Assembly (NCBI GenBank): GCA_050012475.1
Contig: JBEKHC010000035.1
Location: 1-44,670, forward strand
Source: Candidatus Velthaea sp.
GTDB lineage: Bacteria; Vulcanimicrobiota; Vulcanimicrobiia; Vulcanimicrobiales; Vulcanimicrobiaceae
DNA: 44,670 bases
Reading direction: 5' to 3'
Each line of letters opens with the position of its first letter. Position 1 is the stretch's first letter. The notes under the pieces were generated by a model that was not told where the DNA came from, did no database searches, and saw only the letters and a program-made list of their open reading frames with translations. The position numbers and the translations under genes are program-made. Below are positions 1-40,980 of the stretch, in pieces.

Positions 1-647
1 CCTATTCCGTGCAGAACGGCTTGACGACGCCCCAGCTCGAGCTTGCCGACCACGACTACGCGATCGGCACGCTCGTCGAAGCGGTCTCACACTCGAAGGA
101 CTGGGGCTCGACGGCGATCATCATGATCGAAGACGATCCGCAGGACGGTCAGGACCATGTCGAAGCGCACCGCTCGATCATCCACATCATCTCACCGTGG
201 ACCAAATCGCAAGCCGTCGTCCATACGACCTACTTCACGACGTCGGCACTGCGGACGGTTGAGGATCTGCTCGGCGTAAACCACCTCGGCTTCAACGATG
301 CCAATGCGCAGCCGATCGCGGATGCGTTCACGACGCACCCAACGATGACCGCGTACACCCCGACGATTCCGGGCATCCTGTGCACGCAAGCCGCGCCGAG
401 CCTGGTCCCGGCATGCAAGACCAGCGCTGCGAGAACGGCCTCCGTCAAGCCGCTGCACGATGGCGCCTGGTGGGCCAAAGCAACGGCCGGATTGGATTTC
501 TCCAAGCCCGATCACGTCAACCCGCAGTACTACAACGCGATCTTAGAATACGGTATAACCGGACGCGGCACATTGCCCAAGGCATCGGCCGTCGCGGTTG
601 CATCGAAGAACTACGATCCGAACGACGCGGACGGCGACGGCAAGTAA
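1..647 (+). CDS. Phosphoesterase / alkaline-phosphatase-superfamily protein (YncE-phosphoesterase type), C-terminal part; begins before the window
   Basis: ADHDYAIGTLVEAVSHS..W.STAI..IEDDPQDGQDHVEAHRS and TTSALRTVEDLLG are typical of this family; stop TAA at 645-647. Confidence 0.8.
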   Translation, partial: YSVQNGLTTPQLELADHDYAIGTLVEAVSHSKDWGSTAIIMIEDDPQDGQDHVEAHRSIIHIISPWTKSQAVVHTTYFTTSALRTVEDLLGVNHLGFNDANAQPIADAFTTHPTMTAYTPTIPGILCTQAAPSLVPACKTSAARTASVKPLHDGAWWAKATAGLDFSKPDHVNPQYYNAILEYGITGRGTLPKASAVAVASKNYDPNDADGDGK

Positions 648-711: not shown

Positions 712-1337
712 ATCGCGCTATTAGCGATGCCGCATGGCCATTGCGCACGAATCGCCTGCACGTAACGTTACTTTTCGTGGATTCAAAAGGCACCGGCTGT
801 GAATGTGCGGCTCTATTTAGGAATTCGAGCGCGCTTGCTCATGCGCTATGGAGCTGGGATGTGTTTCCTTAACTCCGCCGCTGGATATTGGCCAGCAGTT
901 GCCTTGCGGCTTGGCGCGGCGGGTATGCGGATCTTTAGCTCGCAATATTGCCGCGACATCGCTGCGGAATGTGCGCGATCGGCATGCGGAGCCATGGCAC
1001 AGCCGGCCGGAGGCATGGGCTTGCGTGTGCAGGTCCGTATTGGAGAACCGGATGGCCGCTCTCGGCAAACGCAATCGAAAACTTTAGTGCCTTTGATGAA
1101 AGTTAACTCAACGATGAAAGTTCGAGACTTTAGCGACTTTGACTAAAGTTAACCGTTCAGCACGTGCAAATCGCGCGGCAAAGGGAATATCATAGCGTAG
1201 CCGATTCGAGCCGCAGCCGTTTCCGAATCCACCCACCTCTTTCCGACGAAACGATCCGCAGCATCGAATTCGAATACGACGACTGGAGCCATGGGCGGCT
1301 TCATTTTCGCATGCCTTCGTTCCAAGGATGGTTGGTT

Positions 1338-2492
1338 ATGAAGAACGTTTCTCGGGCTATTCTTATCTTGCTGCCGCTTTTGAGCGCATGTGCGGGTGGT
1401 ACGAACTCGACGCTGCCGCCGCTGCAGTCGGCAGCGGCGGGGCAGAGCGCATCCGTACTCGCGTCCTCGCTCGCGCCGGTCACGCGCGAGCCGGTCGAGG
1501 AGCTCCGCCTGCCGCAAGCCGTGGCGAGCACGGGCGATCTGCTGTACGTCGGGAATACCGGCAGCAACACGATCACGGTGTATCGGAATGACGTCGCCGG
1601 CAATGTTGCGCCGATGTACGTCATCGGTGGACCGCGAACGGGCATCGATCACCCGGGGCAGCTCGCGCAAGACGCTCAGGGGAATTTGTACGTGGCAAAC
1701 GGTGCCTATTCCGCGGCAGGTCAGTCGAGTTCCGCGCCGGCGATCCTCGTCTTTGCGCATGGTGCGAACGGCGACGTCGCGCCGATCCGCACCCTCGCCG
1801 GTTCGTTGACGGGCATTCACAACATCGCAGCGATGACGGTGGATCGGGCCACCGGCAAGATCTTCGTCGACGACTACGTGTATGAATCCGATGGGTATCT
1901 GGTCGATGTCCGAATGTTGCGCTTCCCGCCTGGCGCTACCGGAAACACAGCCCCGTACGCGCGCAGCGCGGCTGGCTTGTTTCCGGCGCTCGAATTGGCA
2001 TCGGACTCCACCGGCCAGCGTCTGATCGAGGCGCATTCGACGAATGCGGCAAACAACTACGGTTTCGGCGTCGACACGATTGTCAAACAGTTTCCCAACG
2101 GGGGCGCAGCGGTCGTTCCGCCGTATGGAGTCATCGACGCCTTCCAGACCACCGGCGTGGCGGACGATCCGACCACGAAAACCTACCTCGTCAGCGCCGG
2201 AAGCATCTACCGCTTTGCGGAAGGGACGACCGGGGTCGGGCCTACCGAAGGCAACGTGCCGTCGTTCACGCCGCTGGCCGAATCCACCATTACGAGCGAT
2301 ACGTGCGGCTCGCAGTTGGCGATCGGGAATTCACGCGACATTTTCGTAACGCACGGGACCCAGACGGGCTGCCCCGCGGACGCGATCTACGTCTACGCGC
2401 CGGATGCGGCGGGCAATGCACATCCGCTGCGGATTCTTGCTGGTGCGGCGACGGGGTTGAGTCACCCGTACGGCATCTTTGTGGGCACGTAA
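1338..2492 (+). CDS. Secreted lipoprotein with NHL-like beta-propeller repeats
   Basis: ATG 1338 after AAGGA; signal MKNVSRAILILLPLLSA-C (lipobox); repeats DLLYVGNTGSNTITVY, DAQGNLYVAN and GNVAP/GDVAPIRTLAG/GNAHPLRILAG. Confidence 0.75.
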   Translation: MKNVSRAILILLPLLSACAGGTNSTLPPLQSAAAGQSASVLASSLAPVTREPVEELRLPQAVASTGDLLYVGNTGSNTITVYRNDVAGNVAPMYVIGGPRTGIDHPGQLAQDAQGNLYVANGAYSAAGQSSSAPAILVFAHGANGDVAPIRTLAGSLTGIHNIAAMTVDRATGKIFVDDYVYESDGYLVDVRMLRFPPGATGNTAPYARSAAGLFPALELASDSTGQRLIEAHSTNAANNYGFGVDTIVKQFPNGGAAVVPPYGVIDAFQTTGVADDPTTKTYLVSAGSIYRFAEGTTGVGPTEGNVPSFTPLAESTITSDTCGSQLAIGNSRDIFVTHGTQTGCPADAIYVYAPDAAGNAHPLRILAGAATGLSHPYGIFVGT

Positions 2493-2554: not shown

Positions 2555-5335
2555 TCAGTCGTGCGTAAACAACGCGTAGTTGAAGAAGATCGTGCGATTG
2601 GGTAAGCCGAACCGCTCGGTCGCGGCATTGCCGACGAGTGGTGCGTAGTTGGCGGGTGTCGCGTACGCATTGAGGGCCAGGGGAACGCCCAGCCCGCGCA
2701 GGCCTTGAATGTTGGCCCACTGGTTGAACAAATTCGAGACGGTAACCGAAACCAGCCCTTTCCCGAGCGGGACGCTTGCACGCAGGTCGCTGTAGTTGTA
2801 TGCCGGCAGCGACTTGGTATTTCCGGCCGAAAACGTGTGAACGGTATAGCGCAGGTCGACGGTGCGCCCGAAGACCTGGTCGAGCGCGCCGACGAAGGTG
2901 TGCAGCGGCAGATGCGCGAGCTGTCCCCCCGGGATCAGCGTCACGTTCGACTGCAGAAGCTGGGTCGGCGCGGAAATTAGAGCCGTGGAGTCGAGCGTCC
3001 AGTCGTAGTCGATGAACGTGTTGCGCGTCAGCCGCTGCCGCCCGCCGAACATCGCTCCCCGCGAGCGCTCCTGACCCACGTTGAAGGTACCGGTGACGGC
3101 CAAGGTCGCTGCCGCATTGGGACAGCTCTTCGCGATGGCCGCCGTTGCCTGCGCGAGGTACGCGGGATCGATGAAGCCAGTTCCGGATTCGCTCAGCGGG
3201 ATCGTGGTGGAGAACAGCTTGTCGTAGATGTTGACGTTATAGAGCGTGAGCTGGAGCTGCGAGTCGTCGCGAAAACGGTGACTGTACGCGAGTTCCGTAT
3301 CCACGCCGCGTTCGGGCTTGAGCACCGACGACGGCGCGCTGCCGATCGAATTGGAAGCGCAGTTGATCCCGGCACCGCCGCCCGCGCCGCCGGGCGGCGA
3401 TGGAACGAACGGCTGATCGAGCTCGTCACCCGATGGCTGAGTCGTAGTCGCACCAAGCGAAAAACGCGCGACGTCGCGCTTCGAGGCGGCAAAAACCAAC
3501 GACGCGCGCGGATCGACGTTGGAACTGTTGGTCGCCGTCGAGCGCTTCCAGCTGCCGTCGAAATACGCGGTGAGCGGTCCGCTGTTGGGGTGGTAAATGT
3601 CGTGGAGCACGAAGCCCTCGTCGGTGACGATCGGCGTGCCGCCCGAGGCACTCGAAGGCGTTGCAAAGCTCAGGTCATACGCCGTGTTGAGGTAGCTGTA
3701 ACCGAGCCCGATATCGTTGTCGCGAGCGCGAAACATGTCGCTGAGCGTTGCGCCCGTTTCGGCCACGTTGTCGCGTGCATAGAACGACTGGCTCGAATCG
3801 CCCGGTTCGCTGACGTATGGCAGCGCGTACTGCCGGCTGATGGTATTGAGATACCGATTGGTGAAAACGTCGGCACGAATGAGCTCGTTCGCGGGCGTCG
3901 AGCTGAGCCCGAGGTGATAGTCGCCGAAGTTGAACGACTGCCAGGCGGTGCCGGCGCCGTCATAGCCGGTGTTGAAGGCGGCATATTGCTGCGGTGTTTG
4001 ACAGGTGATGCCGCCGTCTGGCGGCCCAAGTGTCCCCGGCGCCGAACCTTTGGGCGGCGGACCGAAGCCGTTGGGTTGGCCATTGGCGTTGGTGGCGACG
4101 AACGTGCCGGCCGGGCACGCGGCGAGTTTAGGGAACGAGGCCGGGGAATAGCCGGCCAGGTCGCCTTTGCCCTGCGCGAGCGCCAAGGCATACGGCGTGT
4201 AATCGCCGTCGCCGTTGCCGGTCTTGTCGTTCCAATACGAGCTGACCACCGAGGTGAACGTGAGCTTCGTGGTATCGCTCAATGCGTAACGCAGCTTGGC
4301 CAAGCCGCTGCGGGAAACGGCGAGACTGTCGTCTTTGTAGATGCCCAAATCGCGCACGGCCGCATTGGCGCCGGGCAGGACCGCCGATTGATCGAAGGCC
4401 GCCCCGGGCTGGTACTGGTAATCGTTCTTGAGCGGCCCATCGAGCGATCCGACGCCGTAGGCAAAGGCGTAGCCGAAGCGCCCAAGCGATCCGGTGGCCT
4501 GTAATTGGGTCGATGCTTTGCTGTACGTGCCGTAGCCTTGCGCCAAGGTGACGCGCCCATCGGGCGTCGGTTCGAGCGTTTGAAAATCGATCGTCCCCCC
4601 GATGGCGCTGTAACCCGCGAGATTGCTGGCCGAACCGTAGATCACGTTGATGTTCCGCAGGCCGGCGACGGGCGAGAGCTGGTAATTGTAACCGCCGGGA
4701 ACGCCGTAAGCGATGGGGTGTCCGTCGAGCGTCGCAAGCGTCTCGAGCGTGCCGATGCCGCGGAAATCGAGCTGCAGATCGTCGCCCAGCGCCGCGGTAT
4801 CGCCCGTGATGCCGTTGTTCACGCTCGGAAGTCCGCGTAACGCGTCGCCGGCTCGGTACGTGCCGGTTTCGATGAGGTTTTCGGGGTCCAGCGAGCGATA
4901 ACTCGTCGACGCCTTCTGCAATGCCCCGCCCAGGGTCGTCGCGCTTCGGCCGATGGTCGCGAGCTGGTTCCCGCTAGGCGCTGCTTGCAGCGACAGCGTC
5001 ACGCTGGTAGCCGCACCCGGCGTGACGCTAACATTGTCGGAATCCGAGGGTTGGTACCCGCTGCGCGCGATGCGCAGCCCATAGGTTCCCGGCCGCAAAC
5101 CGACGACGCGGAACGTACCGCGCTCGTCGGTCTGAAACGTCAGCGAACCGCCGCCTGCGCCGTTGACGACGAAAACCGAAGCTCCCGCGAGCGACAGTCC
5201 GGTCTGCGCATCGACGACGCGTCCGTCGATTTCCGTCGGGGCTGCGGCGCCTTGCGCCAGGGCCGGGGAAGCGCTCAAAGCGCACGCAGCGAAGAGCACG
5301 GGCGCATGTTGCGCCGCGCGACGAAAGATCTCCAT
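2555..5335 (-). CDS. TonB-dependent outer-membrane receptor with N-terminal carboxypeptidase-regulatory-like domain
   Basis: 926 aa; signal peptide (..SPALA-Q); IDGRVVDAQTG..GTYGLRIARSGY domain; plug motifs GDALRGLPSV, LDFRGIG..ETLATLDGHPI, AIGGTIDFQT; barrel motifs LKPERG, VSNLFNQ; SD GAGGA. Confidence 0.9.
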   Translation of the reverse strand: MEIFRRAAQHAPVLFAACALSASPALAQGAAAPTEIDGRVVDAQTGLSLAGASVFVVNGAGGGSLTFQTDERGTFRVVGLRPGTYGLRIARSGYQPSDSDNVSVTPGAATSVTLSLQAAPSGNQLATIGRSATTLGGALQKASTSYRSLDPENLIETGTYRAGDALRGLPSVNNGITGDTAALGDDLQLDFRGIGTLETLATLDGHPIAYGVPGGYNYQLSPVAGLRNINVIYGSASNLAGYSAIGGTIDFQTLEPTPDGRVTLAQGYGTYSKASTQLQATGSLGRFGYAFAYGVGSLDGPLKNDYQYQPGAAFDQSAVLPGANAAVRDLGIYKDDSLAVSRSGLAKLRYALSDTTKLTFTSVVSSYWNDKTGNGDGDYTPYALALAQGKGDLAGYSPASFPKLAACPAGTFVATNANGQPNGFGPPPKGSAPGTLGPPDGGITCQTPQQYAAFNTGYDGAGTAWQSFNFGDYHLGLSSTPANELIRADVFTNRYLNTISRQYALPYVSEPGDSSQSFYARDNVAETGATLSDMFRARDNDIGLGYSYLNTAYDLSFATPSSASGGTPIVTDEGFVLHDIYHPNSGPLTAYFDGSWKRSTATNSSNVDPRASLVFAASKRDVARFSLGATTTQPSGDELDQPFVPSPPGGAGGGAGINCASNSIGSAPSSVLKPERGVDTELAYSHRFRDDSQLQLTLYNVNIYDKLFSTTIPLSESGTGFIDPAYLAQATAAIAKSCPNAAATLAVTGTFNVGQERSRGAMFGGRQRLTRNTFIDYDWTLDSTALISAPTQLLQSNVTLIPGGQLAHLPLHTFVGALDQVFGRTVDLRYTVHTFSAGNTKSLPAYNYSDLRASVPLGKGLVSVTVSNLFNQWANIQGLRGLGVPLALNAYATPANYAPLVGNAATERFGLPNRTIFFNYALFTHD

Positions 5336-5371
5336 GCAATCCTCAGATAATTGAAATGCGAAGTGGGGCGG

Positions 5372-6049
5372 CTACGGTGAGGCCAGCGGAGGACCGCGTC
5401 GCGTCACGTTGCGCATCAGCGCGATCAGAGGGTTGGACGGGCGGAAGCGAAGGCGGCGCACCGAACGAGCGCTGCTCGCCGGCCGGCAACGCCGCACGAA
5501 CCACGTGCCGAACTTGCGGACCGTCATGCCGTGGGCGATCGTGGCCCAGCGCGCGACGCGCACGGCCGCCAACGCGACGGCGAGGGCCGACGCAAGCGTG
5601 ACGCCGCTGCCCAATGGGATCGAGCCACCCAGCAAGTCGCCGATATCGTCGCATGGCAGACCGGCGAAAGCCGAATCGACGAACTCCATGCCGACGACCA
5701 ACGCGAAGGCGGCGCCGACGACGAGTGCGACGAAGGTCCGGCGCGCTTTCACTTCACCGATGGGGTTTGCGCGACGGTGGTACGGGCCGGGCCGCGCGGC
5801 GTCGAGAGCGGCGAGCAGAAAGCGCAGCGCGGCGCCGCCGATGAGGACGAGCGCCGTCGACATCATGACGGTCCGCGATTGATGCGCGATGTCGTCATAG
5901 GTATCGTGCGGCAGCATCACGTCGCCGAAAACATCGATGCCGATATGGGCCGCCAAAGCAGCGACGGACGCCGCCAACACCACGAGCACGGCCGTGCAGG
6001 CGCGGCCGCCGGGCGCGGAATGCAACGTCGGACGAGGCAGAAAACGCAT
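5372..6049 (-). CDS. Multi-pass membrane protein with C-terminal RGPP motif; candidate arrest-peptide leader ORF
   Basis: About 4 hydrophobic segments, His/Asp loop (HIGIDVFGDVMLPHDTYDDIAH), Arg-rich linker, ends NVTRRGPPLASP; stop is 36 nt upstream of the receptor ATG. Confidence 0.7.
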   Translation of the reverse strand: MRFLPRPTLHSAPGGRACTAVLVVLAASVAALAAHIGIDVFGDVMLPHDTYDDIAHQSRTVMMSTALVLIGGAALRFLLAALDAARPGPYHRRANPIGEVKARRTFVALVVGAAFALVVGMEFVDSAFAGLPCDDIGDLLGGSIPLGSGVTLASALAVALAAVRVARWATIAHGMTVRKFGTWFVRRCRPASSARSVRRLRFRPSNPLIALMRNVTRRGPPLASP

Positions 6050-6314
6050 CGCGCAATCGGCTTTCGCAGCGCAGCAAAGCGAAACCGTTGACTTAGGACA
6101 AATTTAAGGAAGGGCGCCTGAAGATTGCAGCGGCGAGCCGCGTCGGGGGAGGAAATCTGCACGCCATGAAAAACGCGGCGCTCGTGTCCCGAACCAGAAG
6201 TTCGTCGCATAATCTCGCTCGTCTTTGCACTGGCGTAGGTGGCGCGGGACGTAAACCGAGGAAGGCAACCGGAGAGCGAACTACCCAAACGTATGAGGAA
6301 ACCACGATGACATT

Positions 6315-7121
6315 ATGATGACGCCCTTTGTCGGCGAAATCCGCATGTTCGCGTTCAACCTTTGCCCCGGTCTGGTGGCTTCCATGCGATGGCCGTCTGC
6401 TCCCCATAAGTGAAAATCAAGAGCTTTTTTCACTGCTGGGCGCGACGTTTGGCGGCGACGGCAGGACCAATTTCGCAGTGCCTGACTTGCGCGGCATGAT
6501 CGCACCGTTTAAGCCGCTGACTTTCTGCATCGCAGCGCGGGGCAATTACCCAGTGGCAGATCCCGGAGCTGCTACGGCTGGATACATGGGCGAAATCCGC
6601 ATGTTCGGCTTCAACCTTGCTCCGTGAAGCTGGACCTCGTGCGATGGCCGGCTAGTTCCGATAGGCGAGGATCCATCGCTCTTTCGTGTGATAGGTACTG
6701 CTTTTGGCGGCGACGGCATGACCAATTTTGCACTCGCCGACTTACGCAGCATGGTGCACCGTTTAAGCCGCTGACGTTCGGCGTCGCAATGCACGGCATT
6801 TTCCCACCAAACGAGACGCCAGAGTATCCCGATTCTGCATCAGATCCGTTCATTGGCGAAGTCCGCATATTCGGGTTCAACTATGCTCCGAGCGGCTGGG
6901 CCTTATGCGACGGCCGGCTACTCCCGATCATGCCCGCGGGCATGCCAATAAACAATCATGGCCTGTTTTCGCTGCTGGGCACCACGTTTGGCGGCGACGG
7001 CAAGAACAATTTCGCAGTGCCCGACTTGCGTGGGGCGGTCGGACCATTTAAGCCGTTAACGGTCTCCATCGCAGCTGACTCTTTTGCAGGCGAGCTTCCT
7101 CAAAGCCCTTCGGGCGCTTGA
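6315..7121 (+). pseudogene. Phage tail-collar domain (microcystin-dependent protein-like) gene, three tandem units, disrupted
   Basis: Three copies of GE(I/V)R(M/I)F.FN.AP..W..CDGRL.PI...LF...G..FGGDG..NFA..DLR; frameshifts near 6360 and 6755, in-frame TGA at 6625-6627. Confidence 0.85.
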
Positions 7122-7188
7122 GCTGGGACTATCCAGCCGCACGGCAGCATGGGATCCCTGGCCGCTGCACCGTTTCGTTGCCGTTTCG

Positions 7189-7560
7189 TTAGAGTACGAG
7201 CGTGTCGCGGCGAAGGTCGCGCAAACTGCGCCCTCCGCGTCCGCCTGTTGGACCCATCTCACCACGCATATGCGTGTTGCGTGCGATAATTACTTCGTTA
7301 CGCTCGTACTTCTCCCAACTGATGTATCCTTTGTGGTGACCGTGCAGGAGCGCCGTCCGCCGATCGCGGGGTTTGCGATGACCGTCGCTACGCTCAGCAG
7401 GTCCCGTTCGTTGCAAAACGCTTCCAGCGCGAGGACGGCTCCGACTTCTCCGACACAGACCATCGCCACGAGCCGCGCGAATCCGGCGATCGACCTGGCC
7501 TCCACCGGATCGTCCGAGGTCCTCGTTGATTGTTTTCAATCCCCGAAAAGCCGAGTGATC
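7189..7560 (-). pseudogene. Remnant of a large serine recombinase gene with internal deletion and frameshifts
   Basis: INEDLGRSGGGQVDR / GFARLVAMVCVGEVGAVLALEA (resolvase domain) lies close to HHKGYISWEKYERN..IARN..M (end of recombinase domain), in different frames. Confidence 0.7.
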
Positions 7561-7586
7561 GTGCATGAGCGACCAGATCGTATTGA

Positions 7587-7712
7587 GTGGGTAGCGCTCA
7601 CGGTGTTGGTACAGCCTCTCAGTTCGGTTTGCCAACGAGTGTAGCCGTCGATTTCACCGGAAACGTTTTCGTTGCCGCCTTCAAGAACAAGCTTGTTCGT
7701 GAGATCCAATAA
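7587..7712 (+). pseudogene. C-terminal fragment of an NHL-repeat protein
   Basis: My translation (too short for the ORF track): VGSAHGVGTASQFGLPTSVAVDFTGNVFVAAFKNKLVREIQ*, fitting the NHL pattern F..P..VAVD..GNV.VA...N...R.I. Confidence 0.65.
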
Positions 7713-7867: not shown

Positions 7868-8980
7868 TTAGTTGATCGGTCTTCGTAGCAGCCTCGCGCG
7901 CCTGTCGATCGCATGGGTGTACGTCGTTCGAGTGATCGCGCAATCAGCGTGACCGAGTCGCTCGCTGCGGACCTTCTCGGGTATTCCAACTGCATCGGCG
8001 AGCAAGTTCATTGAGTGGCGGAGATCGTGCGGCGTCAGCTTTCCTCGAATAGTGGCGGCCGCGACGACGTCGGCGAAGTTTTGCCGACGCGCATTGTTTG
8101 GATTGGTCGGCATGCTCGGATTTGCGCTGCGGAAGAGCCAAACCGAAGACGGTTCATCATCCGCGGCGGCCGCCGGCGCCGCAGCGCACCGAGGGCGAGC
8201 TCGCCGATCGGAGGAAGGCGCAGCGAGTCGACCGTTTTTAAATCGTCGATCACGAGATGGCGGCCAAGGAACAGCGCCTGACGCTGGACGAAAATGCTCC
8301 CGCGCTCGAGATCGACGTCCGACCATTTTGGGCCGAACATCTCACCGATCCGTAGGTCGGCAGTCAGACCGAGCACCCATGCGGCTTCGAGACGGTCGGT
8401 ACGAGCCGCAGCGATGAATCGAACGCTTTCGTCGACCGATAGCGCTCGACCGCGCTCGACCTTGTGCTTTGGTTTCTGCTTCTGAACGAGGGTGAAGGGA
8501 TTCACTCCGGTGTACGCGCCGTCGGCGATCGCGTCGGCCAGCATGGTGTGTAGAACGCGGGAAACGTGGCGGACGGTAATCGCTGATGCGTCGCGGCGGC
8601 TGAGCTCAGCGAACAGCTCCAATACCGTCGCACGATCGACTCGGTCGAGCCTGACTGCCCCGATCAAAGGCTTCGCATGTGCCCACGCCCAGCGGTAAGA
8701 TTCCGCGGTCTTCGGGCGCACTCGTTTCGCGGTCGTGCTGATCCAGGTTGTCACGTAATCGACTACGCGCGTCGGATCGACCGGCGCGAGCTTGCCGCCG
8801 TGTTGCGCTTTTAAATCAGCAAGCTTCCGCTCAGCTTCCGCACGCGTCTTTCCATACACGATGCGACGTCGACGCTTACCGTCGGCACCTTTTTGCAACT
8901 CGGCACGCACGCCCACAAATTGCGGGCCACAACGAAATAAGCCGCACCGGATCCTTTCGGCCGGCGCCGGCGCTGAATCT
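7868..8980 (-). pseudogene. Phage-type tyrosine integrase, frameshifted
   Basis: Three pieces in different frames: RRRRPKGSGAAYF..RNLW; GADGKRRRRIVYGKTRAEA...LRIGEMFGPKWSDVDL; TPHDLRHS...SERLGHAD.AIT..TYTH (HxxR, H, Y motifs). Lies just downstream of tRNA-Ala. Confidence 0.85.
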
Positions 8981-9043: not shown

Positions 9044-9116
9044 TGGAGACGAGGAGATTCGAACTCCTGACATCCTGCTTGCAAAGCAGGCGCTCTACCA
9101 ACTGAGCTACGTCCCC
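9044..9116 (-). tRNA. tRNA-Ala(TGC)
   Basis: GGGGACGTAGCTCAGTTGGTAGAGCG CCTGC-TT-TGC-AA-GCAGG ATGTC AGGAGTTCGAATCTCCT CGTCTCC-A; G3:U70 pair. Confidence 0.97.
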
Positions 9117-12965: not shown

Positions 12966-13042
12966 TGGTGGGCCATCCTGGGTTCGAACCAGGGACCTCA
13001 TGCTTATCAAGCATGCGCTCTAACCAGCTGAGCTAATGGCCC
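12966..13042 (-). tRNA. tRNA-Ile(GAT)
   Basis: GGGCCATTAGCTCAGCTGGTTAGAGCG CATGC-TT-GAT-AA-GCATG AGGTC CCTGGTTCGAACCCAGG ATGGCCC-A-CCA. Confidence 0.97.
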
Positions 13043-39391: not shown

Positions 39392-39480
39392 GGAGAGATG
39401 GCCGAGCGGCTGAAGGCGACGGTTTGCTAAATCGTTATACGGATAACACCGTATCGAGGGTTCGAATCCCTCTCTCTCCT
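39392..39480 (+). tRNA. tRNA-Ser(GCT)
   Basis: GGAGAGA acceptor; ACGGT-TT-GCT-AA-ATCGT; long variable arm; GAGGGTTCGAATCCCTC. Confidence 0.95.
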
Positions 39481-39571
39481 GTGTTGCTCTCCGTTCGCGG
39501 CGAGCGCAGCAGGGAACATGACGGGAGCGTTGTAACAAGCCAGGTCGCCGGCTCGCAAACGGCGCAACGAT

Positions 39572-39645
39572 GCGGTCGTAGCTCAATTGGATAGAGCAAC
39601 AGGCTACGAACTTGTAGGTTGGGGGTTCGAGTCCCTCCGACCGCG
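39572..39645 (+). tRNA. tRNA-Arg(ACG)
   Basis: GCGGTCG acceptor; ACAGG-CT-ACG-AA-CTTGT; GGGGGTTCGAGTCCCTC. Confidence 0.95.
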
Positions 39646-39732
39646 TTTGTGTGGAATCCGGCCGATTCATGCCGGATTGCGAGCGTTCCGGGAAGCGCTG
39701 CAGGCGGGGCAGAATCTCGTCGAACGACCCGT

Positions 39733-39804
39733 GGCTCGGTAGCTCAGCGGTAGAGCGGGGGACTCATAAGCCCTAGGTCGTAGGTTCAAATCCTACCCGA
39801 GTCA
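39733..39804 (+). tRNA. tRNA with CAT anticodon, probably elongator tRNA-Met (Ile2 not excluded)
   Basis: GGCTCGG acceptor with paired G1-C72, so not initiator; GGGGA-CT-CAT-AA-GCCCT; GTAGGTTCAAATCCTAC. Confidence 0.9.
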
Positions 39805-40018
39805 CATCGACGACGATCACGGAGATGCGCTTCGCGCGTGTCCCTTTTTTTGTCTCAACTGCCGCCGGTCGAAGCCGGTCAAAGGGCTCGGTAAACGGGG
39901 ACGCTAATTCGAGGCTTTCCGGACGACGGACACCGCTCTTGCATCTTATCGTAGTGCTTCGGGGGTCTTCAGACAGAGTCGGAACGTTGCTCCGGCAATT
40001 TATTCTTGAGGTATAGCG

Positions 40019-40264
40019 ATGTCTACGATCCCCTGCGATTTCTGTCCACACCCAGTCGACCGGGGACAAATGGAAGAGATCGAGATTTCGCACTACGTTC
40101 CGGACAGTTCGGGCGACGATCTCGCTTATGCGCGCACCTATTTCTTCGGCCACCCGGATTGCGTGCGCAAGTTTTATCGTGGACTCGTCGAGCACAAGCT
40201 CGATCTCTTCAAGCATATTCCCAGTTCGTCCGCGCCGGTGCCCGGCGAAGAGAAGGGCTCCTAA
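40019..40264 (+). CDS. Small hypothetical protein with CxxC...HxxC putative zinc site
   Basis: SD GAGGT; MSTIPCDFC...YFFGHPDCVRKF. Confidence 0.7.
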   Translation: MSTIPCDFCPHPVDRGQMEEIEISHYVPDSSGDDLAYARTYFFGHPDCVRKFYRGLVEHKLDLFKHIPSSSAPVPGEEKGS

Positions 40265-40291
40265 GCGGTACGCCGGAACGGGCGTCCGCGC

Positions 40292-40365
40292 GCTCCCGTA
40301 GCTCAATTGGATAGAGTACCGCCCTCCGAAGGCGGGGGTTGCCCGTTCGAGCCGGGCCGGGAGCA
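40292..40365 (+). tRNA. tRNA-Arg(CCG)
   Basis: GCTCCCG acceptor; CCGCC-CT-CCG-AA-GGCGG; GCCCGTTCGAGCCGGGC. Confidence 0.95.
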
Positions 40366-40366
40366 C

Positions 40367-40882
40367 GATTCTGGCGACGAGCGGTACCTCCGGCGCGCGC
40401 TCGCTTTGGCGCAGGAAGCCGCGAGCGCGGGCGAGGTGCCCATCGGCGCGGTTCTCGTCGCCGGCGGCCGCGTCTTCGAGGCGCGCAACGAGAAAGAGCG
40501 TCGACCCGATCCGACCGCTCATGCCGAGATCCTTGCAATTCGCGCGGCGGCGCAGGCGCTCAGGACGTGGCGGATCGGGGGCACGCTGTATGTGACCAAG
40601 GAGCCGTGCTCGATGTGCGCCGGCGCGATTGCCGGAGCCCGAATCGAACGGCTCGTGTTCGGCTGCGTCGACCCCAAGGGCGGTGCGGCGGGGGGCGTCA
40701 TCGACGTGCTGGGGTCACCGGCGGTCAACCACCGCGTGATCGTCACCAGCGGCGTCTTGCAGGCCGAGACGGCCCGGCAGTTGCGCGACTACTTTCGCGC
40801 CAAGCGAACCACCGGTCTCGAACCGCCGGAGTCCAACGTACCGTTCGCCGAGGGTTTTCCCGGACTCGACGCCGTCCGATAG
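40367..40882 (+). CDS. tadA: tRNA adenosine(34) deaminase; start codon unresolved
   Basis: DERYLRRALALA..GEVPIGAV, DPTAHAE, TKEPCSMCAGAI, DPKGGA, LRDYFR; near its substrate tRNA-Arg(ACG). Confidence 0.9.
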   Translation, partial: DSGDERYLRRALALAQEAASAGEVPIGAVLVAGGRVFEARNEKERRPDPTAHAEILAIRAAAQALRTWRIGGTLYVTKEPCSMCAGAIAGARIERLVFGCVDPKGGAAGGVIDVLGSPAVNHRVIVTSGVLQAETARQLRDYFRAKRTTGLEPPESNVPFAEGFPGLDAVR

Positions 40883-40893
40883 GCCGGTACACT

Positions 40894-40980
40894 AGGAAAG
40901 GGGGAGATTCGAACTCCCGGTCCCCGTAAAGGGACTCCTGATTTCGAGTCAGGTGCAATCGGCCGCTCTGCCACCTTTCC
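40894..40980 (-). tRNA. tRNA-Ser(CGA)
   Basis: GGAAAGG acceptor; CCTGA-CT-CGA-AA-TCAGG; long variable arm; GGGAGTTCGAATCTCCC. Confidence 0.95.

Follow-up and report, generated by a model that had tools for sequence, protein, structure and literature searches.

A four-helix membrane leader ending in RGPP before a TonB-dependent receptor gene of Candidatus Velthaea: a candidate ribosome-arrest switch and its leader family

The window considered here is a 44,670-nucleotide stretch of DNA from Candidatus Velthaea sp. of the Vulcanimicrobiota (contig JBEKHC010000035.1, assembly GCA_050012475.1), and on its minus strand a gene for a small membrane protein, here called the leader, directly precedes the gene of a TonB-dependent receptor. 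The leader open reading frame (ORF) runs from 6049 to 5372 (-) and encodes 225 residues ending in NVTRRGPPLASP; near this end lies the arrest-type motif RGPP (R218-P221, 5387..5398 (-)), seen in the translation and conserved in the family. The receptor gene (2555..5335 (-), 926 aa, with CarboxypepD_reg and Plug domains) starts with an ATG at 5335, 36 nt past the leader stop, and its Shine-Dalgarno (SD) site and spacer occupy 5336..5345 (-). An initial annotation of this DNA had described a multi-pass membrane ORF of this length ahead of such a receptor, and this arrangement is confirmed. The AlphaFold model of the receptor matches TonB-dependent transporters (best E 3e-30) with 10-15% identity to all solved transporters listed, and the fold comparison singles out no substrate. 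The genome encodes TonB C-terminal domains as well as Rho.

Hydropathy and an AlphaFold model (pLDDT 81; helices 14-45, 57-84, 100-129 and 144-188) give the leader (5372..6049 (-)) four transmembrane (TM) helices, with both termini predicted inside; the hydrophobic part of helix 4 ends near residue 165, ~55 residues before P220. The positive-inside rule is the established basis for assigning membrane topology, and loops 1 and 3 are placed in the periplasm because each holds 5 acidic residues, with 1 and 0 basic residues respectively, while loop 2 and the tail hold 6 and 13 basic residues. The annotation had also noted about four TM segments and the lack of the CxxC of DUF2946, and sequence, hydropathy and structure model all bear this out: there is no CxxC in the 225 residues and no conserved Cys across the family. 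Assignment of the leader to DUF2946 was rejected on these grounds together with the lack of a PF11162 match, and a PF11162 search of this 94%-complete genome returned nothing. The leader has no Pfam or NCBIfam match at E<=1, and a Foldseek search with its fold returned nothing at E<=0.001; a likeness to a MacB-type ABC permease (VIA-align best Z 8.2, root-mean-square deviation 5.1) lies in the range of helical-bundle noise and was not used. In the ESM Atlas, unnamed Actinomycetota and Chloroflexota clusters reach a feature score of 0.96, which is a lead only; clusters carrying a name reach only 0.78, and the names looked up in 10 clusters were 'hypothetical protein' or none. That the leader belongs to a separate family, as proposed earlier, gains support from this lack of PF11162 or other library matches and from a conserved residue set of the leader's own.

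A profile built from 8 relatives matches 156 of 401 Vulcanimicrobiota genomes in 39 of 116 genera, 149 of the matching genomes falling in the window's own family; there are 284 representatives at 50% identity, and the relatives with names are Vulcanimicrobiota metagenome-assembled genomes. R[AG]PP is present in 151 of 153 family proteins (RGPP in 83, RAPP in 68), although the forms with Arg are the rarer ones in the long frames of this genome (RGPP 25 and RAPP 36 vs AGPP 48 and AAPP 112). Fourteen residues are conserved at 92-100% in the same 153 proteins, and E122 at 84%, all at predicted outer helix ends. Nine of them (H35, D39, D43, D49, Y51, D52, H56, S58 and R59, 92-99% each; codons at 5873..5947 (-)) form an outer cluster at the end of helix 1 and in loop 1, and M121, D125, G141, G142 and S143 form, with E122, a second cluster at the end of helix 3 and in loop 3 (5621..5689 (-)). 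Conservation of the His/Asp residues, which the annotation had put forward as part of a sensor, is thereby confirmed.

The genes around the leaders were examined in 110 loci, comprising the 30 best profile matches and 80 regions chosen from the match list, which were rescanned with a profile cut before the motif. Of the 125 resulting matches 119 carry R[AG]PP; the six others are three contig ends, one short fragment and two frameshifted copies in G359 that have RGPP in the shifted frame. One locus at a contig end (L112) was dropped, and in the remaining 118 loci a receptor-like gene lies downstream of the leader in 116, while D39, D52, H56 and R59 are kept in all; 57 of the 118 come from the genus g4, and kin are not independent. 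The motif is also present in 12 of 12 metagenome loci, several of which repeat genome loci. The conserved terminal motif and the synteny with TonB receptors that had been anticipated for homologs are thus both found. In G359 (L073) both leader copies are frameshifted, one of them giving an apparent 1159-aa leader-receptor fusion, and these frameshifts are probably assembly indels. Tandem leader-receptor-leader-receptor arrays with two receptor clades occur at L042, L044, L059, L063, L065-L067, L071, L077, L080, L087, L106 and L134, and five of these arrays have a phosphoesterase gene directly upstream.

Two spacings are held nearly constant in these loci. On the mRNA, the distance from the motif Arg codon to the receptor start is 59-72 nt in 90 of 118 loci (full range 59-115 nt). 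Tails beyond the motif are anywhere from 3 to 186 residues long. In 25 loci of 7 genera the leader reads on out of frame into the receptor gene and stops there, 19-186 residues after the motif; even so, the Arg codon of these run-on leaders lies 59-70 nt from the receptor start. Since the motif-receptor distance is kept though the leader stop moves, it is the stall position on the mRNA, and not the finished protein, that is conserved. On the protein, D125 and the motif Arg are 91-95 residues apart in 118 of 118 loci, and among the representatives the figure is 92-95 for 144 of 151; the tail that this interval spans is poorly conserved. The H56-D125 interval is shorter yet looser (67-70 in 136 of 150), and the bias of profile searches towards ungapped matches is common to both intervals.

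Two distant leader paralogs in this genome, at G000 C148 (L138:6038-6700 (-)) and G000 C109 (L139:1333-1995 (-)), end in RAPP and have no Pfam match; the first precedes another TonB receptor followed by a phosphoesterase, the second an LCP gene. They define a sister subfamily, found in 123 of 301 genomes, that aligns with the leader family at a profile probability of 98.7% with only 13% identity, and that holds D25, E29, N33, D43, E114 and E117 at or near the leader positions H35, D39, D43, D52, E122 and D125. The genomes G329 and G238 may be counted among the 401 and 301 surveyed for the two subfamilies, but their sequences underlie none of the claims. In 71 sister loci, R[AG]PP is present in 56 of 71 matches, the other 15 being 6 RPPP, 2 RSPP, 1 CAPP, 1 frameshift, 1 contig end and 4 shortened copies; E117 lies 92-95 residues before the Arg in 73 of 74. 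The 26 sister downstream proteins scanned comprise 12 LCP, 5 receptor-like, 1 AcrB, 1 bestrophin-like and 1 DUF1007 protein, and 6 with no match. The four shortened copies (L170-L173, genus g21) end after helix 4 with no motif and no receptor or LCP gene behind, and from their sequences appear to be decayed or freed copies.

Other RxPP leaders were seen beside these two subfamilies. Multi-TM ORFs at G000 C28:37880-38575 (L278 ~880-1575 (+)) and G000 C1 ~7030-7700 (-) end in RPPP before TonB receptor-like genes and are alike by eye (H-x3-E, RH-x-Y, Q-x2-EG); the C28 leader has no significant alignment with either subfamily (probability 13% and 0.1%). With these two ORFs, four receptor-like genes in this genome therefore have RxPP leaders. 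In a set of more distant leaders (L199, L201, L203, L205, L206, L208 and L200) most end in NRPPP; the genes behind them code for small exported proteins (HVxCGDRVFP), CxxCH proteins or a receptor, and the gene behind L200, which ends in RGPP, is a DUF1007 gene. This set may be a metal-linked third subfamily.

These comparisons bear on what kind of product the leader is. That it is a finished accessory inner-membrane protein, such as a permease, chaperone or hydrolase partner of the receptor, in which the role of RxPP is confined to slowing translation or coupling receptor to leader, would suit a conserved, folded four-helix domain (pLDDT 81) larger than most leaders and the existence of motif-less sister copies that end after helix 4 in one genus. 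But the product would then be unconstrained at its end, the tail being 3-186 residues long and often running out of frame through the receptor gene; the motif-less copies are those with no receptor or LCP gene behind, and this genome has a leaderless receptor paralog (C21). This alternative is accordingly given very little credence. A second alternative makes the leader a ligand-free monitor of insertion like MifM, in which insertion of helix 4 (N-out, C-in) by Sec/YidC releases the stall, the receptor and LCP genes track the state of the inner membrane or the proton-motive force, and the acidic loops only hinder insertion. The distance of ~55 residues from helix 4 to the stall equals in effect the narrow TM-to-stall spacer of MifM (median 54), and fixed spacing is what is expected for N-out/C-in segments according to the account in PMC10987492; the varied envelope genes behind the sister subfamily also agree with such a monitor. 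Against it, near-invariance is not a matter of charge alone but extends to specific residues (two His, Ser, Arg, Tyr and Met), the sister subfamily holds a different invariant set at the aligned positions, and none of the downstream genes identified is a sec or yidC gene. An insertion monitor without a ligand is for these reasons thought unlikely, though a good deal less so than an accessory protein.

The preferred reading is a cis-acting arrest switch that would have its output at the RNA level. At this locus GCGGUCCUC (5397-5389), the codons for R-G-P and the anti-SD arm of the helix first proposed (anti-SD 1, 5389..5397 (-)), is complementary to GAGGAUUGC (5344-5336) over 9 bp with two G:U pairs. 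Of this genome's 60-nt windows 1.7% hold a comparable match, and 0 of 100 synonymous recodings of the tail pair as well as the native tail. The complementarity proposed in the initial annotation is thus real, but the helix is not the predicted fold of the region 5320-5420 that the annotation had named for folding: its probability is 0.00 there, 0.28 in 5330-5405 and 0.96 in 5333-5400, and 0.79 when RNA 5' of 5402 is blocked. A local hairpin competes, and in longer folds the SD pairs instead with 5440-5424 (p 0.99), so that the stretch 5424..5440 (-) is the predicted SD partner in naked RNA (p ~0.99 in folds reaching 5460). A second string, CCUCA (anti-SD 2, 5378..5382 (-)), is complementary to UGAGG and is still covered, at the 3' edge, by the modelled ribosome footprint; it and its SD partner are invariant in two 52%-identical relatives, L009 has a G-C version of the fifth pair, and alone it is too weak to form at this locus (p<=0.004). 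The fold z-score of 5300-5440 is only -0.56.

Across the family the RNA relationship is clearer. When the tail, taken as -6 to +33 from the Arg codon, is paired against the receptor start region, cognate duplexes average -17.9 kcal/mol vs -14.3 for other loci, with 112 of 118 better than the median; the observed cognate pairing is reached by none of 2000 one-per-genus derangements, and within g4 it is matched by 0 of 5000 permutations. In 150 ordinary genes of this genome there is no such difference (cognate -15.97 vs -15.92), and the sister subfamily shows it too (-17.8 vs -14.2, from 46 of 56 loci, 10 having been dropped for mis-called or cut starts). The best SD partner is formed by the RxPP codons in 66 loci, closely follows them in 39 and falls past the footprint in 13, and is thus inside the stall footprint in 105 of 118; the idea that the RxPP codons themselves serve as the anti-SD therefore stands for the 66, with the arm lying just past the prolines in the 39. 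Codon choice points the same way: among the 92 RGPP leaders, Gly is encoded by GGA in 62 (background 17%) and the first Pro by CCT in 62 (background 5%), together spelling GGACCUCC, and since CCT is favoured while the equally rare CCA is found in 3 of 92, slow decoding is not the reason for the bias. Tails that pair better than 95% of their synonymous recodings number 51 of 118. The standard anti-SD was assumed for the ribosome, the 16S 3' end not having been found in the assembly. A stall footprint set with Pro in the P site, the position given by the CruR toeprint, lowers the opening energy of the start region by at least 2 kcal/mol in 72 of 118 loci; moving the footprint 12 codons upstream leaves 16 of 118 with such a gain, and control genes show it in 17 of 118.

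An output of the CruR type is the alternative at this step: the stalled ribosome would mainly bar Rho from a C-rich stretch, release would bring termination before the receptor, and SD pairing would be secondary. Rho is encoded, C exceeds G between the motif and the SD in 115 of 118 loci, as it does over 5480-5341 in the window, and the mechanism has been shown for CruR (PMC9426467); it would also explain the weak RNA switch at this locus. The spacer is, however, far shorter than the 162 bp of CruR, the C-richness follows as well from proline codons and the anti-SD, and both the cognate pairing and the bias for CCT over CCA are left unexplained. As the principal output Rho is judged improbable, while SD unmasking in that role is considered probable, and the two can coexist.

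A number of observations weigh against an SD switch driven by arrest, most directly at the locus itself. Modelling of the stall there does not bear out the proposal that a stalled ribosome frees the receptor SD: with upstream RNA free the opening energy goes from 9.9 to 10.5 kcal/mol, while a control footprint upstream lowers it to 6.9, and with upstream RNA left out of both states it goes only from 5.3 to 4.5. In the family the cognate pair reaches the top 5% in just 18 of 118 cases, 17 closely related g4 loci with nearly identical strings show no preference for their own partner, and g4 drives the codon counts. Only 16-17 of 30 genera average an opening of at least 2 kcal/mol, and the genus g1 averages 0.7 and -0.4 kcal/mol in two models; loci of g4 and g20 are those with a strong predicted switch. 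The loci were initially selected by a profile containing the motif, which somewhat favours the motif rate, and RAPP alone is reported in PMC12992588 not to stall where a helpful upstream context is lacking. If queued ribosomes cover the upstream RNA, the modelled stall takes the opening energy at this locus from 9.9 to 4.5 kcal/mol. Masking of the SD by strings under the stalled ribosome is in sum supported by computation for the family, through cognate pairing and the codon bias of RGPP, and weakly for this locus; an SD switch here is plausible in the models, possibly needing ribosome queuing or, given that C exceeds G in the spacer of 115 of 118 loci, Rho.

Leaders ending in RAPP or RGPP before TonB receptors and other genes form a published class (Fujiwara et al., EMBO J 2025, PMC12992588). 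In several of the contexts examined there RGPP was the most strongly arresting motif, and 7 of 7 Streptomyces proteins tested with C-terminal RAPP or RGPP stalled, four of these being membrane proteins. The leader shares the features of that class (under 300 aa, membrane-targeted, RGPP or RAPP near the C-terminus, and a co-oriented TonB receptor gene), having 225 aa, a conserved motif, TM segments and a co-oriented receptor gene at short distance. It differs in that almost all TonB-linked leaders presented there have a signal sequence, while the family here has four TM helices; the four-TM arrest peptides of Streptomyces in that report (SLIV_18480, 27375, 33595 and 33605) precede YcnI, thioredoxin or ECF sigma genes and not TonB receptors. 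The family here is both four-TM and TonB-linked, with a carboxylate-rich, Cys-free cluster.

Among individual systems the leader resembles CruR (Bp2923, DUF2946/PF11162) of Bordetella pertussis in being a RAPP-type leader before a TonB receptor with fixed sensor-motif spacing and a stretch of C over G (PMC9426467). CruR is described in that paper as an exported protein of 145 aa that senses copper, with CxxC 45 residues before RAPP, Rho output and a 162-bp spacer; unlike it, the leader has no CxxC, no PF11162 domain, four TM helices, a spacing of 91-95 residues and a 36-nt spacer bearing the anti-SD. The proposed likeness to CutF of Rhodobacter capsulatus, a DUF2946 protein, is that a nascent exported protein senses a periplasmic ligand and a stalled ribosome melts a stem-loop at the ribosome-binding site (10.1101/2022.11.11.516240). 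In CutF the stall, at a proline-rich motif that depends on EF-P, is induced by copper, and the gene controlled encodes a detoxifying oxidase (10.1101/2022.11.11.516240; 10.1101/2025.02.05.636593), whereas the leader has RGPP, an importer as target and probably the opposite polarity. With SecM, MifM, ApdA and ApdP it would share an arrest that unmasks a downstream SD; those leaders, as treated in PMC10987492, have sec or yidC targets and one targeting segment, in contrast to the TonB receptor target and conserved four-helix domain here.

Taken together, the leader is rather likely a cis-acting arrest switch of RAPP type with an RNA step like that of SecM and CutF. Arrest at RGPP, by analogy with its tested relatives, is very probable, and control of the receptor in cis nearly as much so. 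The ribosome would stall by default with the RGPP prolines in the P and A sites, at which point the four-helix bundle would be at or in the membrane with the His/Asp cluster facing the periplasm. The stalled ribosome would cover the C/U-rich strings in or just after the RGPP codons that otherwise mask the receptor SD, and receptor translation would be on; the pull from insertion and from ligand-assisted folding of helices 3-4 would then release the stall, the RNA helix would re-form and the receptor would be turned off. Gating of the arrest by a ligand is slightly favoured over its absence. The cluster may bind a small periplasmic ligand, for which a divalent metal is the best single guess, short of an even chance; no ligand or a different one comes next, and phosphate or a metal-phosphate species a little behind that.

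The case for phosphorus comes from upstream of the leader, where a Pho-box-like direct repeat of two CTTAA-type half sites with an 11-bp period lies ~40 nt before the ATG (6089..6110 (-)). The matrix used was learnt solely from 27 pstS upstream regions and recovers this CTTAA repeat of 11-bp period, which also recurs upstream of several leaders and resembles the cyanobacterial Pho box, given as CTTAACCT with a 3-bp linker in PMC1906773. The window box scores 9.7, between the 95th (4.2) and 99th (12.1) percentiles of 1179 control genes. Leaders above the 95th percentile number 24 of 117, 8 of these above the 99th, and are concentrated outside g4 (21 of 61, in 14 of 30 genera, vs only 3 of 56 in g4); in the sister subfamily they are only 3 of 56. 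Shuffles give a mean of 3.2 (maximum 8) and column-permuted matrices a mean of 5.6 (maximum 19), periods of 10 and 12 give 16 and 14 and the rest 7-10, and boxes are found in 38 of 553 genes with free upstream DNA and 3 of 59 neighbours in relatives. Searched for as a strict regular expression, the repeat turned up in only 5 of 117 loci, and the matrix took the place of this search; an 8-mer census upstream of leaders found nothing, and no box precedes the g4 phosphoesterase that lies upstream of L134.

Strong boxes in this genome precede the closest receptor paralog, which is leaderless (C21), and a candidate phosphate transporter, presumably of PitA type by its sequence. Pho-like boxes lie at G000 C21:36841-39870, C24, C31, C149 and C3:23018-23450, before the leaderless receptor paralog, another receptor, the probable phosphate transporter, a phosphoesterase and a pstS copy, this last split over two frames. 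A phosphoesterase is adjacent in 10 of 118 loci (mostly with short flanks). These sequence patterns suggest Pho control in part of the leader family, and transcription is probably under PhoB-type control in some lineages, this one included. Box and neighbouring phosphoesterases together hint at phosphorus as a rival to metal for the input; because phosphatases also need metals, they are no demonstration that the leader senses phosphate. A bolder form of this idea makes the four-helix domain a new periplasmic sensor of phosphate or phosphorylated compounds, with a metal bound by His/Asp and an anion site of the invariant H-x-S-R and GGS; its output would be a pull on the stalled ribosome that makes it. 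Together with the Pho box this would be a two-level gate on a phosphorus-scavenging receptor, while sister subfamilies with other residues but the same fold and 92-95-residue ruler would control LCP phosphotransferases and other importers. This is tentative and stands well short of even chances, and the literature search found no phosphate-gated arrest peptide.

Neighbouring genes outside the leader-receptor pair are not conserved and point to no substrate. An Rfam scan of the window found tRNAs only and no riboswitch, a consensus scan found no sigma-70-like promoter and no intergenic terminator, and no plasmid relative was found. The C-terminal part of a phosphoesterase-family gene (3-647 (+)) and an NHL-repeat lipoprotein-like gene (1164-2492 (+)) are convergent with the receptor. 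Two small ORFs with phage tail collar-type repeats (6328-7121 (+), PF07484 in the second) diverge from the leader. A weakly matching, apparently shortened integrase-like ORF (8035-8916 (-)) lies beside a tRNA gene (9044-9116 (-)), and given these two the leader-receptor pair may lie in an old island. Six further tRNA genes are at 39392-40980 and 12969-13042.

No family library has a name for the leader family, which belongs to a group of uncultured soil bacteria; what is new is the superfamily with its two rulers, the double use of the stall codons, and the Pho lead. The literature search found no paper on the family; the supplements of PMC12992588 that were searched contain no Eremiobacter, Vulcanimicrob, Baltobacter or LytR entry, and the remaining supplement files may list these ORFs anonymously. 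PMC12992588 raises the question of how, and on which signal, RAPP arrest ends when the Sec/YidC pathway is not involved. The leader family makes the release signal testable, since it joins a folded domain with an invariant outer cluster, a residue ruler that holds to within four positions in both subfamilies, and stall codons that are at the same time the anti-SD. Natural variants are available in the form of different cluster residues, different targets, and overlapping vs separate leaders. If the input is related to phosphate, sensing by translational arrest would be extended beyond metals and secretion; if it is a metal, the family would be one more of the CruR and CutF kind, in a phylum of oligotrophic soil bacteria.

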